Part shown: positions 13,914-19,355 of the stretch, one piece after another
Numbering within the stretch: position 1 is the stretch's first letter
How the letters are laid out: the number at the start of each line of letters is the position of its first letter
NCBI RefSeq assembly: GCF_900199515.1
Contig: NZ_LT963434.1
Span: 1,772,180 to 1,804,179 of the forward strand
Direction: 5' to 3'
Source of the DNA: Massilicoli timonensis
GTDB taxonomy: Bacteria > Bacillota_I > Bacilli_A > Erysipelotrichales > Erysipelotrichaceae
Length of the DNA: 32,000 nucleotides
The notes under the pieces: generated by a model
Told to the model about the DNA's origin: nothing
The model's database searches: none
The model's input: only the letters and a program-made list of their open reading frames with translations
Position numbers and translations under genes: made by a program

Positions 13914-15611
13914 ATGAGCAGATTAAAACAACAGATCAGAATTACCGCTTTATATTGCAGACTTAGCAGAGATGACGAGTACAGCGGAGACAGCGCCAGT
14001 ATTCAGACACAGAAAACAATGTTGAGCCAATATGCAAAAGAACATGGCTTTGCAAATTGCGAGTTTTTTGTGGATGATGGGTATTCCGGTACAAATTATG
14101 AACGTCCTGACTTTAAGCGTCTTATGAAACTGGCAGAGGACGGCAAGGTCGCTGCAATCATTGTAAAGGATTTATCCCGCCTCGGTCGTGACTATCTGAA
14201 AACAGGCTATTACACCGAAGTGATTTTTCCTGAATATGATGTACGGTTTATCGCTATCAATGATGATGTGGACACGAGCAAAGGCAGCAATGAGTTTGCC
14301 CCGTTCAAAAATATCATTAACGAGTGGTACGCCAAAGATTGCAGCAAGAAAGTGAAGTCCGCTTTCAGAACCAAAGCGCTGAACGGAGAATATACCGGAG
14401 GCTACCCGGCTTTTGGGTATCGTAAAGACCCGGATGACAGACATCATTTGATTCCCAGCGAACACGCGCCCATTGTGAAACGTATGTTTCGTATGGCGTT
14501 GGAAGGAGTAAGCTGTTATCACATCGCCAAAACGCTGGAGGCGGAACAGGTTCCTACACCACGGGCTTTCCTATGCGACAAGTACGGAAAATACGTGGCA
14601 AATGCACAGGTTAAGCACCCATACGCATGGGCGAAATCAACAGTGTATCAGATTTTGAGTAATCCCATTTATCTGGGCAAGCTGGTAAGCTGTCGTTATC
14701 AGACACGTTCTTTCAAAGATAAGAGAATTGTGCCAAGACCTGAAGAAGATTGGATTACAGTGGATAATACCCATGAGGCGTTAGTTGATGAAGCTACCTT
14801 CAATACGGTTCAGGCGCGTATCAGTGTCAAGCAGCGTCCGACATGGGAAAATTCAGATAATATGTACCGGGGGCTTTTAATTTGCAATGACTGCCGTACC
14901 CGTATGGTGTATTCCCGCAGGACAGGACGAAAATCCAAAGGACATTTTTGCTGTAACACCCACCGCAGGTATGGCGGAAAGGAATGCTCCAATCACTATA
15001 TTACGTTGGAGCAGATAAATGAAATCCTTTTGGGAGACATTCACCGTCATGCAACACTGGCCGCTGCGGATAAAGATTTGTATGTGGCTCACCTGATGCG
15101 GCTGTCAGAACAGGAATGGGATGGCGAAAAATCGTCATTCCAGAAAGAGGCTGAAAATTGCAAGCGAAGGCTTTCTGAAATTGATACTCTGATCCAACGA
15201 CTTTATGAGGACAATGTTCTTTACCACAAAATCTCTGATGAACGGTATGCAAGCCTTTCTGCAGTGTATGAAGCGGAAGCGGCAACCTTGAAATCTCGAT
15301 ACAGTGAACTTCAAAATTTGCTTTCCGGCTACAGCAAACAGACAAGAAATGCTAAGGAATTTGCCGAACTGGTTGAACACTACACAGACATTACAGAGCT
15401 GACGGAGACACTTTTACACACGCTGATTGATAAGATCATTGTGCATGAGAAAGAAGTTATCAACGGAGAGATTGTAATGAAAGTAGATATATACTACCGC
15501 TTTATCGGCAAAGTCGGAGACGAAAACGGCGAGGAAATTAGAGCTCCCAAAATGCGCAGAAATACAAAGTTACTTATGGAGGCCGGAGTGCTGACAGAAC
15601 ATGAGGCGTAG
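13914..15611 (+). CDS. Large serine recombinase (resolvase N-terminal domain + recombinase domain + zinc ribbon + DUF4368-like C-terminal coiled coil)
   Basis: GGAAAGG at 13901-13907, then ATG 13914. It has [11 protein letters not shown] (catalytic Ser), [19 protein letters not shown], the Cys cluster [10 protein letters not shown]...[19 protein letters not shown], and C-terminal [12 protein letters not shown]...VDIYYRFIG. Confidence 0.95.
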
Positions 15612-15810
15612 ATGGTCTTCTCAAAAAGTGGTGCGCAATAAACAAAACACTCCGGGGATCATCAAGTATCCGTTTTGGCAGATGACCTATCAGAACCCGA
15701 AGGCGGTGTATGCCTGTGTGAACCAGGGGGAGGCGTTTGCACCGAAAGAGATTGAAGAGCGGTCGATTTGCATTGATGGGGATATTGGGGAAGTGCTGGA
15801 ATGCTTATAA
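15601..15810 (+). CDS. Small ORF (69 aa) overlapping the recombinase stop; the only intact copy of the sequence repeated at 17374 and 18944
   Basis: ATG 15601 overlaps the recombinase 3' end by 11 nt. The product is ...[57 protein letters not shown]. The homologous copies differ mainly at third codon positions. There is no strong SD and the function is unknown. Confidence 0.3.
15621..15805 (+). repeat. Direct repeat module, copy 1 (follows the recombinase gene)
   Basis: tcaaaaaGTGGTGCGCAATAAACAAAACACTCCGGGGATCATCAAGTATCCGTTTTGGCAGATGACCTAT...GATATTGGGGAAGTGCTGGA. It is homologous to 17374-17550 and 18944-19110. In an ungapped hand alignment, 69 of 80 positions are identical between 15635-15714 and 18951-19030. 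Confidence 0.9.
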
Positions 15811-15958
15811 AAGTATTTCTGCAGAATATATCCTTGTCTAAAACAGGCACACTCAATATACACGGTGTGTACTAAGTGATAGCCGCAAAATTTGCGACTG
15901 CTATTCCACCATAAAGGAATCGAAAGAATACTGTATTGGTGTCGTCTCCTATTTTGTT

Positions 15959-16019
15959 CTACTCATTCTAACCATCTTATTGACAGTAATGGTTAGAATG
16001 AGTAGAATATGGTTAGAAT
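15959..16019 (+). promoter_or_regulatory. Promoter with overlapping operator: 17-bp perfect inverted repeat plus a third half-site
   Basis: CTACTCATTCTAACCAT (15959-15975) pairs with ATGGTTAGAATGAGTAG (15989-16005). TTGACA (15980-15985) sits in the spacer. A 17-nt gap leads to TAGAAT (16003-16008). ATGGTTAGAAT recurs at 16009-16019. GGGAGG and ATG 16039 follow. Confidence 0.65.
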
Positions 16020-16038
16020 AAAATAGGGAGGCGGTCAA

Positions 16039-17733: not shown

Positions 17734-17744
17734 CGGGAGGGCGT

Positions 17745-18941
17745 ATGAAAACGATAACTAGGACAAAGTATTTGGAGCGAATCATTGAACTAAATCAGAC
17801 TCCGGATATTAAAATTATTACAGGAATTCGCCGTGCAGGGAAGTCAGAATTGATGCGGGCATATATTTCATATCTGAAGAGCCATTTTGAAAATATCAAT
17901 ATTATCTTTATTGATTTTATGGATATAGAATATGAAGGACTCAAAGAATACCACGCGCTTCACACATATGTGGAAGCGCATTATCAGGCGAAAAAAACGA
18001 ACTATGTTTTTGTGGACGAGGTTCAGATGTGTCATAAATTTGAACTGGCAATCAACAGTCTCTATTCGAAAAGAAAATATGATATTTATATTACAGGTTC
18101 CAATGCTTTTTTGCTGGGGGCGGATTTGGCGACTTTATTTACCGGGCGCTATATCGGGATTCATGTGTTTCCTTTTAGTTTCCGAGAATATTGCCAGTTC
18201 TATGATGAGATTGACGATAAAGAGAAATTATTTGATGAGTATATGATAAAGGGAGGATTGGCTGGTTCTTATGTTTATAAAACAGAGGCAGACAGAATCC
18301 GCTATGTTAAGGAAGTTTATGAAACGATTGTTACAAGAGATCTTGTACAGAAATATTCTTTGACGGATACTCTGGTTTTGCAGCGGCTGAGTGAGTTTCT
18401 TATGGACAATATCAGCAATCTGACTTCGCCAAATAAAGTCAGCCGGCTTCTAACTGCAAATAAGACAACTACCAACCATGTAACTGTCGGCAGATATATT
18501 AAATATTTGTGCAGTGCTTTTGTTTTTTATGATATAAAACGCTATGATATTCGCGGAAAGAAATACCTTGAAAGCTCTGAAAAATTTTATCTGTGTGATA
18601 CAGGTATTCGCTATGCGATTCTGGGAAGCAGGAACATGGATTATGGAAGGGGATACGAGAATATGGTCTGCATGGAACTGCTTCGCCGGGAGTACACGGT
18701 ATATGTTGGGAAACTGTACCAAAAGGAAATTGACTTTGTAGCACAAAAGGGAAATGAAAAAATATATATTCAGGTCAGTGATAATATTTCGGATTCCAAA
18801 ACTCTTGAAAGGGAATGCCAGCCATTACTGCAAATCCGTGATGCTTATCCCAAGAAAATTATTGCACGGACACGACACCCTAAATACAGTTATGAAGGAA
18901 TTGAAATTTGTGATATTGTTGACTGGCTATTACAGGAATAG
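17745..18941 (+). CDS. AAA+ ATPase of the AAA_14 / DUF4143 family
   Basis: Track ORF 17655..18941 trimmed to ATG 17745, after GGGAGG (17735-17740). Walker A is GIRRAGKSEL and Walker B is YVFVDEVQ. The C-terminal part (...FYLCDTGIRYAILG...) is as in DUF4143-containing ATPases. Confidence 0.85.
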   Translation: MKTITRTKYLERIIELNQTPDIKIITGIRRAGKSELMRAYISYLKSHFENINIIFIDFMDIEYEGLKEYHALHTYVEAHYQAKKTNYVFVDEVQMCHKFELAINSLYSKRKYDIYITGSNAFLLGADLATLFTGRYIGIHVFPFSFREYCQFYDEIDDKEKLFDEYMIKGGLAGSYVYKTEADRIRYVKEVYETIVTRDLVQKYSLTDTLVLQRLSEFLMDNISNLTSPNKVSRLLTANKTTTNHVTVGRYIKYLCSAFVFYDIKRYDIRGKKYLESSEKFYLCDTGIRYAILGSRNMDYGRGYENMVCMELLRREYTVYVGKLYQKEIDFVAQKGNEKIYIQVSDNISDSKTLERECQPLLQIRDAYPKKIIARTRHPKYSYEGIEICDIVDWLLQE

Positions 18942-18943
18942 AA

Positions 18944-19110
18944 ACGGCGTGCAATAAACAAAACACTTCGAGGATCATCAAATATCCGTTCTGGCAGATG
19001 ACCTATGAGAGCCTAAGTACGGTGTATGCCTTGTGAAACAAGGAGAGGTGTTTGTGCCATCTGAAATAAAAAACAGGTCGATTTGTATGAACGGGGATAT
19101 TGAGAAAATA
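18944..19110 (+). repeat. Direct repeat module, copy 3 (follows the AAA ATPase gene), degenerate
   Basis: ACGGCGTGCAATAAACAAAACACTTCGAGGATCATCAAATATCCGTTCTGGCAGATGACCTATGAGAGCC... A 1-nt deletion creates TGA at 19033-19035. An orphan TTTCAAAA (19186-19193) / TTTTGAAA (19209-19216) palindrome follows, at the same distance as IR-a follows copy 2. Confidence 0.85.
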
Positions 19111-19355
19111 CCGGTCGTGCCGGATGAATGAAACAAGTAAATCATCACAGTTTGATGCACATCTTCCCCTTCATGACCCTACTCATTTCAAAAAAGCAAA
19201 ACTACCGGTTTTGAAAACATCTCTTTACACGATCATTTTTTGCATCTGACAATCCTATGCGACATACAAGAAATAAGAAAATGAGAGAACGCACTTTCAC
19301 GAATCGACAGGAAAAACACGTCTGCTTTGATAAAGTTTAGCTAGGAGGAACCCCT

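Follow-up and report, generated by a model that had tools for sequence, protein, structure and literature searches.

The 3' part of a SirTM sirtuin gene as a probable integration hotspot for TnpX/TndX-like serine recombinases and tandem cassettes in Massilicoli timonensis

The window analysed here is a stretch of 32,000 nucleotides from the genome of Massilicoli timonensis (contig NZ_LT963434.1, positions 1,772,180 to 1,804,179), in which the gene of a large serine recombinase (LSR) is followed by three direct repeats. What is this repeat, and how did genes come to be stacked between its copies? The original prediction offered two explanations, namely tandem accretion of related integrative elements, the two distal ones lacking a recombinase, or an integron-like capture platform that runs on the LSR. 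According to our analysis, the locus is very probably an integration hotspot within the gene of a SirTM-type sirtuin, where the repeats represent three attR junctions and the units between them were accreted in tandem. Accretion at an LSR site was thus largely the right reading, although the anatomy differs from the one proposed. Both distal units, named AlbA_2 and AAA_14 after their genes, are indeed devoid of a recombinase, and the element encoding the LSR abuts the first repeat copy.

A repeat search of the window returned two adjoining direct families, each with three copies in one orientation:

15630-15715, 17379-17464 and 18946-19031, direct: family 1
15718-15791, 17465-17538 and 19033-19106, direct: family 2

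Taken together, the copies are ~170-190 nt long, and their register was confirmed by MAFFT alignment. As described below, each consists of a short recombinase arm (P arm) and a gene fragment:

Copy 1, forward strand: P arm at 15623-15651 and SirTM fragment at 15646-15810
Copy 2, forward strand: 17376-17544 overall
Copy 3, forward strand: 18942-19131 overall

The predicted layout of three modules in the same orientation, each starting just after the stop codon of a gene, was borne out. The upstream stops are at 15611, 17349 and 18941, and the copies start 1-27 nt beyond a stop. Only one gene is situated between neighbouring copies, as had been noted, and both genes could be annotated with Pfam (AlbA_2/HATPase_c_4 at 16039-17349, AAA_14/DUF4143 at 17745-18941). 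The closer relationship of copies 1 and 3 also holds, with 85% identity across the first 86 nt compared to 63-64% between copies 2 and 1.

Six-frame translation revealed that copy 1 is an open frame, that copy 3 contains the same frame with one frameshift, and that copy 2 contains it with two stops and frameshifts. A protein search with this frame returned 607 clusters, mostly open reading frames (ORFs) of ~60 aa, and the best match of the copy 1 frame was a Massilicoli timonensis 'hypothetical protein' (100%). In the alignment, a few longer homologues extend upstream into Sir2-type sequence (...CPKCG...LFLELGVGMNTPGII) and match a 288-aa protein adjoining a Macro-domain gene in other genomes (L011:7561-8427; the comparison loci, fetched from genomes and metagenome contigs, are labelled L with a number). 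The three window copies correspond to residues 235-288 of this protein (tblastn, E ~1e-4 to 1e-38), and copy 1 shares 94% amino-acid identity with the C-terminus of the L011 SirTM. No SirTM 5' part was found within the window by tblastn with the 288-aa protein. The M. timonensis homologue matches PDB entry 5A3A (SirTM) with 3.8e-79 over residues 15-284, while the generic Pfam family SIR2 gives a weak match only. The gene upstream of SirTM, overlapping it, encodes a protein-ADP-ribose hydrolase (NF003163, 373.7 bits at a cut-off of 272), and Macro lies next to SirTM in most of 80 loci. The GcvH-L/LplA2 linkage of described SirTM operons was not found in M. timonensis, where HxlR, SnoaL_2 and PNPOx/Fer4 lie beside the pair instead. 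The repeat is the last 54 codons of the Macro-linked SirTM gene. It had been regarded as an anonymous module, while it is in fact a coding fragment behind a short arm, J. The three SirTM parts are:

15646..15810, forward strand: copy 1, intact last 54 codons and stop, displaced by the element; also the left end of the AlbA_2 cassette
17395..17544, forward strand: copy 2, pseudogenised by stops and frameshifts; left end of the AAA_14 cassette
18962..19131, forward strand: copy 3, oldest displaced SirTM 3' end, one frameshift; host chromosome beyond

The host genes flanking copy 3 are identical across all strains compared. Among 60 distinct displaced copies, 50 have retained the open frame, and copies 2 and 3 of the window belong to the decayed minority. 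The ORFs at 15601-15810 (69 aa, annotated as 'hypothetical protein') and 17431-17682 (83 aa) arise from reading through displaced SirTM 3' ends, and many database entries of ~60 aa starting with MVRNK[QH]NTPGII are the same artefact, i.e. displaced SirTM tails.

The identity of the frame also bears on the simplest alternative, that the copies are scars of local duplication or a small independent gene or RNA element corresponding to the 69-aa ORF at 15601-15810. Copy 1 is open for 60-69 codons and equals a deposited 'hypothetical protein', as such a gene would. However, the frame is the C-terminus of the 288-aa SirTM and is fused to the SirTM gene in most strains, the copies differ by 15-37%, the intervening genes are unrelated, and copies 2 and 3 contain stops and frameshifts. 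We consider this alternative barely credible. An RNA or a small gene as the nature of the repeat was rejected on the frame analysis and the lack of any match of the repeat in Rfam, where no attC-like match was obtained either.

Ahead of the SirTM part lies J, a recombinase arm of ~17-25 nt with the consensus TGGTGCGCAATAAACAW. It precedes all displaced copies found (n=98 in the fetched loci), after a recombinase gene or a cargo gene alike. Of the 120 best protein clusters, at least 96 show the prefix VRNK[QH] that J encodes. Where a recombinase shares at least 60% identity with that of the window, J and the fragment almost always follow within ~10-120 nt; for those with at most 54% identity, J and the fragment do not follow. 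Because the recombinases of at least 60% identity almost always precede both, J plus fragment can be assigned as the attR of this recombinase clade. A repeat copy, composed of J and a SirTM tail, is therefore an attR-type junction.

The other half of the disrupted gene was found in the same genome, which also encodes a truncated host SirTM (P0242, WP_219718857.1, identified by cluster look-up) of 274 aa that diverges after ...GVGGNTP. On contigs with a truncated SirTM, the order is NusG-HxlR-SnoaL-PNPOx-Macro-SirTM 5' part, followed by element DNA. Empty sites for the element are present in other strains. Positions 15646-21000 of the window are 99.7% identical to recombinase-less M. timonensis strains (L182), and this identity begins exactly at the attB core; in L182, the segment starting at window position 15646 is fused to the SirTM 5' part, forming an intact gene. 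The order in recombinase-less strains is Macro-SirTM(288 aa)-AlbA_2-copy 2-AAA_14-copy 3-LiaI-like-His_Phos. To define the crossover, attB from L182, attL from L205 and attR from the window were compared:

attB (strain without the element): GGCGGGAACACC-CCGG-GGATCATC; short form GGGAACACC-CCGG-GGATC
attL: GGCGGGAACACC-CCGG-TGTTACATTTTTGGAGCACC; short form GGGAACACC-CCGG-TGTTACATTTTTGGAGCACC
attR (window): GCGCAATAAACAAAACACT-CCGG-GGATCATC; short form AAAACACT-CCGG-GGATC

This comparison confines the exchange to CCGG. With a further element, in L123, only CC is left, because its attL reads ACG-CC-GGTGTTTGGTTTATTGCGCACC and its attR ACC-CC-CGTTATC. The attB site spans the Asn-Thr-Pro-Gly codons, 54 codons before the SirTM stop, and the exchange occurs at CC. 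The P' arm of attL matches J in inverted orientation at 16/22 positions, in keeping with attP, so that the sites fit a conservative 2-nt exchange with imperfect inverted-repeat attP arms. A fuzzy search for the inverted J across all loci detected it in L123 only, and the P' arm of the window's element (16/22 symmetric) was located later via the truncated SirTM protein. In both attL sites recovered (L123 and L205), the P' arm is an inverted J and does not resemble SirTM. The att core suggested at first, the pair GGCAGATGAC / GGTGTATGCC, turned out to be plain coding sequence 30-60 nt downstream of the real crossover. The arms in the window are:

15623..15651, forward strand: P arm J1 of attR, AAAAAGTGGTGCGCAATAAACAAAACACT, matching the J consensus and 16/22 inverted relative to P'
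15652..15653, forward strand: inferred crossover dinucleotide CC of attR, from the attB/attL/attR comparison and L123
17376..17402, forward strand: degenerate P arm J2 with central CC (17401-17402)
18942..18969, forward strand: degenerate P arm J3, central dinucleotide mutated to TC (18968-18969)

Combined, there is good reason to regard copy 1 as the live attR of a large TnpX/TndX-like element, and copies 2 and 3 as decayed relics of earlier insertions.

The element and its recombinase occupy the left part of the window:

13914..15611, forward strand: large serine recombinase of TnpX/TndX type (Pfam Resolvase, Recombinase, Zn_ribbon_recom and DUF4368)
1..15653, forward strand: right-hand part of a large integrative, probably conjugative element; lipid cargo at 611-11420, then the recombination module; attL outside the window

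The recombinase matches TnpX (PDB 2MHC) with 2e-38 and is 40.7% identical to an annotated tndX product, while its NCBIfam scores for CcrB, CcrC and CcrA (102.7, 81.6 and 58.2 bits) are far below the respective cut-offs of 900, 900 and 700. The left end of the element was found in L205-L210, the attL contigs of the same samples. Here, attL is directly followed by a second complete SirTM gene (L205:10001-11685; 287 aa, ~65% identical to that of the host) and then by DUF5720, DUF6017, DUF3991/Toprim, DUF6674, LPD1, LPD34 and DUF3846, a set which we take to be typical of large clostridial conjugative elements. As the start of the element SirTM and the stop of the truncated host gene share 4 nt, the element copy is probably expressed as part of the host Macro-SirTM operon and takes the place of the disrupted gene. 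The element in L123 has the same design, with a SirTM copy after attL. Furthermore, the element SirTM retains an attB-like site (AATACG-CC-GGGCAT), at which a further element could be received.

How far the element extends to the left was judged from prevalence and identity. The CDP-alcohol phosphatidyltransferase encoded in the lipid cluster has 14 contigs in its cluster of at least 90% identity, with the next relative at 82%, as against 737 blocks for the host His_Phos protein. Similarly low counts (18-25) were obtained for the recombinase, the truncated SirTM and the copy 1 ORF. In addition, window positions 65-13576 are 99.9% identical to L193-type contigs, which contain the same lipid genes, regulator and sigma factor followed by a different module with three recombinases. 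Because of these counts and identities, positions 1-15653 are assigned to the right part of an accessory element present in a minority of strains, and the lipid cluster (611-11420), by prevalence counts and sample co-occurrence, appears to belong to it. Searches of phage and plasmid collections yielded distant or unannotated matches only.

Two other delimitations were considered and abandoned. A ~4-kb element bounded at ~11600 or ~12553 had come into view since pairwise breakpoints clustered 1360 nt upstream of the recombinase, where a GCGCACC motif resembled an inverted J; the alignment of this region contained no more than conserved hairpins and sequence resembling a promoter ahead of the sigma gene. 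A chromosomal rearrangement, or an assembly through a repeat, had been considered as the reason for the missing SirTM 5' part because many metagenome contigs end in the shared 1.9-kb regulator-sigma region. It became unnecessary since the attL contigs of the same samples show a large element, with which the rarity of the lipid genes agrees.

The recombinase was proposed as the platform's own integrase, whereas it belongs to this accessory element, which occurs in a minority of strains and is later than the cassettes. The locus reads as a two-cassette array into which the element subsequently inserted. Elsewhere, a 100%-identical recombinase adjoins a different fragment and an AlbA_2 gene of only 78% identity, and therefore the element arrived there independently.

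What, then, is the unit that was accreted? The cargo genes and control regions of the two cassettes in the window are as follows:

15957..16008, forward strand: AlbA_2 cassette promoter TTGACA-17-TAGAAT in a perfect 19-nt inverted repeat, putative operator
16039..17349, forward strand: cargo 1, AlbA_2 (Schlafen-type)/HATPase_c_4 protein (Pfam; PADLOC matches weak)
17612..17733, forward strand: AAA_14 cassette control region, 36-nt imperfect inverted/direct pair around TTGTGT-17-TATAAT
17745..18941, forward strand: cargo 2, AAA_14/DUF4143 ATPase (Pfam; PADLOC candidate defence system PDC-S01, 2e-148)

Each gene had been credited with its own promoter and palindromic operator. This is correct for AlbA_2, whose promoter scores 11/12 in the promoter scan and whose perfect inverted repeat (arms 15957-15975 and 15989-16007) is kept in L011 and L102. 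For AAA_14 the claim does not stand in this form, as the 36-nt inverted pair is only 72% identical, and TTGTGT-17-TATAAT was read from the sequence, while the scan lists only weaker sites there. Across the loci, cassettes are 0.74-2.8 kb in size with one gene or operon abutting J, and their cargo is a narrow set comprising AAA_14/DUF4143 (PDC-S01), AlbA_2/HATPase_c_4, AbiEi/AbiEii and ParE/MazE.

The boundaries of the unit emerged from comparisons between species. For the AlbA_2 cassette of M. timonensis and L011, the 700 nt of the SirTM 5' part are ~62% identical, and from the attB core onwards identity is ~89%, which holds through the 3' fragment, promoter and AlbA_2 to its stop and then drops at J. 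Accordingly, the two SirTM protein halves are 61% and 94% identical between M. timonensis and L011, compared with ~61-72% in both halves of unrelated pairs. Likewise, the AbiE cassettes of L189 and Ca. Choladousia (L022) change from ~60% to 90-95% identity from the fragment start to the AbiEii stop, and in L023 and L011 the AbiE cassette and the fragment begin at exactly the same position, preceded by a J. Since identity steps up at the attB core and falls at J, the unit is [replacement SirTM 3' end + promoter + cargo + J]. On these identity profiles, the cassettes are discrete units that have evidently been transferred between species. A unit composed of cargo, J and the downstream fragment was rejected, because identity drops at J, and because it is the fragment ahead of a cargo that co-varies with it. 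We likewise dismissed the idea that the cassettes are full elements in decay, fixed in place when the SirTM 5' parts of host and element recombined homologously, since the identity step coincides with the attB core. The 5' parts of the host gene and of element or other SirTM genes are 61-65% identical in protein and ~60% in nucleotide sequence, and duplicate SirTM 5' remnants were not seen in the loci examined apart from L123.

Units indeed occur singly, in other orders and numbers, and beside homologous recombinases in other genomes, as accretion had been expected to produce. Nor is the three-copy arrangement constant, which would have spoken against the prediction, since related strains contain 3, 4 or 5 SirTM 3' ends, that of the intact gene included. 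The arrays read as follows:

M. timonensis, most strains: AlbA_2, AAA_14
M. timonensis L189: AbiE, ParE/MazE, AlbA_2, AAA_14
M. timonensis L191: AbiE, ParE/MazE, AAA_14
L011: AlbA_2, AbiE, AAA_14
L016: AAA_14, AbiE
L022: AbiE, AlbA_2
L047: AAA_14, AbiE-like

The same few cargos recur in differing orders in many Clostridia, and in most arrays no recombinase is present within 10 kb. L191 contains a hybrid repeat with the crossover ~35-40 nt inside the repeat, and therefore its AlbA_2 unit was lost by recombination between two repeat copies. From the comparisons it is evident that arrays grow at the end beside the SirTM gene, that strains have gained and lost units, and that one loss came about by homologous recombination.

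Could homologous recombination between the ~170-nt repeats alone have built the arrays, with J behind the cargo genes as an inert scar of a few ancient events? The L191 deletion, whose crossover is not at CC, and the mosaic copies of L189 speak for this explanation. In contrast, for two cassettes the cross-species rise in identity coincides with the attB core, the host 5' parts with their ~60% identity are too dissimilar for efficient exchange, and J is near its consensus behind cargo genes in many unrelated genomes. We therefore consider homologous recombination as the sole process improbable.

On the hotspot reading, each LSR insertion leaves on its right an attR in which the P arm of the element, J, is joined to the old SirTM 3' end. 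The large element probably repairs its target with the full SirTM copy at its left end, while the 3' end of the head cassette completes the host SirTM and rebuilds attB. Because attB is rebuilt, the next arrival inserts at the same position and displaces older units downstream, and the newest unit is nearest to the SirTM gene. As to the movement of the cassettes, we prefer a route in which the recombinase would move them by standard reactions only; this is inferred from the structure of the junctions and units. In a first step, an integrated element (attL ... attR1) would stand in front of older attR2 and attR3 sites. It could then excise with a distal attR, taking the intervening cassettes with it, and integrate in a new host by attP x attB recombination. 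A later exit by the proximal attR would leave the cassettes behind, and the host 5' part would be fused at CC to the 3' end of the first cassette, which is the structure of the recombinase-less strains.

Several points weigh against this account. Only the unit boundaries suggest that the recombinase mobilises cassettes, and the attB core encodes a highly conserved peptide, so that the identity step can be placed only within ~30 nt. The route leaves the first origin of a [3' end + gene + J] unit unexplained, and gives no reason why cargo stops always abut J. Furthermore, copy L189_c changes type ~30 nt ahead of its stop, and a patch is present in L189_a. The arrays are therefore shaped by homologous recombination or gene conversion between copies as well, which makes the unit boundaries less sharp. 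The full element was not seen in one piece, with window positions 1-11420 attributed to it via prevalence and co-occurrence. Finally, J2 and J3 are degenerate, J3 lacks the CC, and there is no sign of present-day activity in the window. Since these arms are degenerate and copies 2 and 3 are pseudogenes, both window cassettes are probably fixed fossils.

Another explanation is an integron-like capture, in which free circular cassettes with a J-CC-(SirTM 3' end) joint would be inserted directly into the SirTM attB, or excised from the array head, by a TnpX-like recombinase acting in trans, without a large carrier. It would account for the compactness of the cassettes with one gene or operon abutting J, the recurrence of few cargo types in different orders across genomes, the unit boundaries at the crossover, and the predominance of open frames among displaced copies, as expected under re-use. 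Moreover, TnpX-type enzymes are bidirectional without an accessory directionality factor (PMC5704250). However, this capture needs a P-B' x B-B' reaction instead of the standard LSR pairing of attP and attB, the attL sites in L123 and L205 carry an inverted-J P' arm that is not SirTM-like, and most arrays have no recombinase within 10 kb. Taken together, we regard it as unlikely, though better placed than homologous recombination alone. It is slightly less doubtful, and still tentative, that the arrays form part of an integron-analogous cassette-exchange system of gut Clostridia and Erysipelotrichia run by TnpX-like LSRs. Here, compact units would be captured at and released from the SirTM attB and ferried by large elements or as free circles, and displaced ends would be kept open by periodic re-use as a functional C-terminus.

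Returning to the large element, its recombination module contains further conserved features upstream of the recombinase:

11720..12154, forward strand: OmpR-type winged-helix regulator without receiver domain (Trans_reg_C PF00486, 3e-23), first gene of the conserved recombination module
12633..13082, forward strand: element-type sigma-70 region 4/extracytoplasmic function (ECF)-like factor (Pfam Sigma70_r4_2, TIGR02937), kept in the module
13087..13649, forward strand: ORF-free conserved segment of ~560 nt from the sigma gene to the small ORF and recombinase, candidate large structured RNA
13650..13829, forward strand: small conserved ORF of 59 aa, upstream of related LSRs (tblastn)

The regulator is likewise kept upstream of related LSRs. 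The small ORF, which is presumably TnpW-like, has no Pfam or NCBIfam match. Every related recombination module has kept the ORF-free segment, and so has L193, the variant with three recombinases. In an alignment of six sequences (about five of them distinct), RNAalifold predicted 140 pairs, of which 27 covary, compared to 12.7 +/- 2.4 in shuffles (0/500) and 0-6 in slid controls, while Rfam 15 gave no match even at E<=10. On this model, the segment is a candidate for a large structured RNA that accompanies TnpX-like recombination modules.

The lipid/envelope cluster at 611-11420 encodes GT2, an acyltransferase, MgtC, an epimerase, DegV, an Mbeg1-like-DegV fusion, HlyIII, a CDP-alcohol phosphatidyltransferase and a PAP2-like protein, and appears to be element cargo and not core genome, its prevalence being far below that of host genes. 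The gene of the PAP2-like membrane phosphatase (10739-11420) is split by a frameshift near 11280, where the ORF 10739-11383 continues in another frame, 11211-11420, that holds an H-x3-D motif; this frameshift may be real or a sequencing error. Just left of the recombination module, the ORF 11440-11547 (MVSSSVGLPPVYTLIAVLFGGKLFGISGIIFLCLL) resembles the C-terminal part of a membrane permease and may be a remnant. In one metagenome contig (L197:1-4800), the Mbeg1-like-DegV gene is truncated at the equivalent of window position 6526 and joined to small phage- or satellite-like genes (REP_ORF2-G2P, DUF6273, DUF6378 and Tad2-like). At the other end of the window, a tmRNA gene directly follows smpB (27316-27697), and the region downstream to ~29100 differs between strains, with an HTH_17 and a DUF5906 primase-like gene in L184, L186 and L190. 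These strain differences suggest a second integration hotspot at ssrA.

Elements with serine recombinases are generally regarded as disruptive to the gene they enter, with repeats of 2 nt only. With regard to its significance, the proposed accretion route would allow a TnpX-like clade to keep its target working, the large element by a whole spare SirTM and the small units by a spare 3' end. Because restoration of the gene regenerates the attachment site, open-ended stacking is possible. This would be a Firmicute counterpart of SCC and integron arrays (SCC, staphylococcal cassette chromosome) and a testable account of how defence-type genes are gathered and exchanged by gut anaerobes, here the PDC-S01 ATPase, AbiE, AlbA_2/Schlafen-like proteins and ParE/MazE. 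The two cassettes of the window look like fixed fossils, and the importance lies in the system as a whole and not in activity at these coordinates. As by-products, the analysis defines the attB/attP pair of a new recombinase clade together with its crossover, explains hundreds of 'hypothetical proteins' of ~60 aa as displaced SirTM tails read from the junction, and yields J plus SirTM tail as a marker for finding such arrays.

In SCC, including SCCmec, the Ccr LSR acts at the 3' part of rlmH, which remains functional, and recombinase-less units are found in tandem with the newest next to the gene. Measured against SCC, the present system is similar in that an LSR targets the 3' part of a conserved gene that stays functional, and that recombinase-less tandem units are bounded by integration-site repeats, with the newest beside the gene. 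In contrast, the target here is SirTM and not rlmH (orfX), the recombinase is TnpX/TndX-like, with Ccr scores of 58-103 bits at cut-offs of 700-900, each unit holds one defence or toxin-antitoxin gene in 0.7-2.8 kb and is no multi-gene resistance island, and the hosts are gut Clostridia and Erysipelotrichia. Moreover, the site is situated 54 codons inside the gene and therefore each unit carries a replacement end of ~165 nt, which makes the repeats long and diverged, unlike those of SCC.

Tn4451 and Tn5397 (TnpX and TndX) share the recombinase family (2e-38, ~41%, DUF4368) and the position of the recombinase gene at the very end of the element. These transposons show a relaxed target choice at GA dinucleotides. 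The clade described here differs by its specificity for one SirTM site, the CC exchange, the replacement target gene and the cassette arrays.

The cis-mobilisable elements (CIMEs) of streptococci, described around ICESt1 and ICESt3, are similar in forming tandem arrays at one attB, with recombinase-less units adjoining an element that encodes the matching recombinase, as in the window. For CIMEs, it was proposed that the neighbouring autonomous element mobilises the units together with itself (PMC5704250). Those systems employ tyrosine integrases, and their repeats derive from long identical att cores, whereas here a serine recombinase exchanges 2 nt, and the only source of the repeats is the copy of the gene end that every unit brings with it. 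Integrative and mobilisable elements (IMEs) with serine recombinases typically insert into dispensable genes, which they disrupt, and their flanking repeats are very short (PMC5704250); therefore, long and diverged target-derived repeats together with target repair are unusual for this enzyme class.

Chromosomal integrons resemble the arrays by their ordered, compact and mostly single-gene cassettes enriched in defence and toxin-antitoxin functions, by growth at the end beside the recombination site, and by cassettes shared between species. From the integron-like platform first envisaged, growth at the target-proximal end only is retained, but the arrays lack a tyrosine integrase (IntI) and attC hairpins, their cassettes come with individual promoters, the repeat is derived from coding sequence of the target gene, and there is no resident recombinase. 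Among the window ORFs scanned, no tyrosine recombinase domain was detected; the only recombinase is the serine enzyme on a separate element. In the literature on serine recombinases and sirtuins, on SirTM and mobile elements, and on DUF4143/AbiE together with serine recombinases, we found neither SirTM as a recombinase target nor such arrays described. The system is neither SCC nor an integron, and its closest functional analogues are SCC composite islands and CIME-type accretion.

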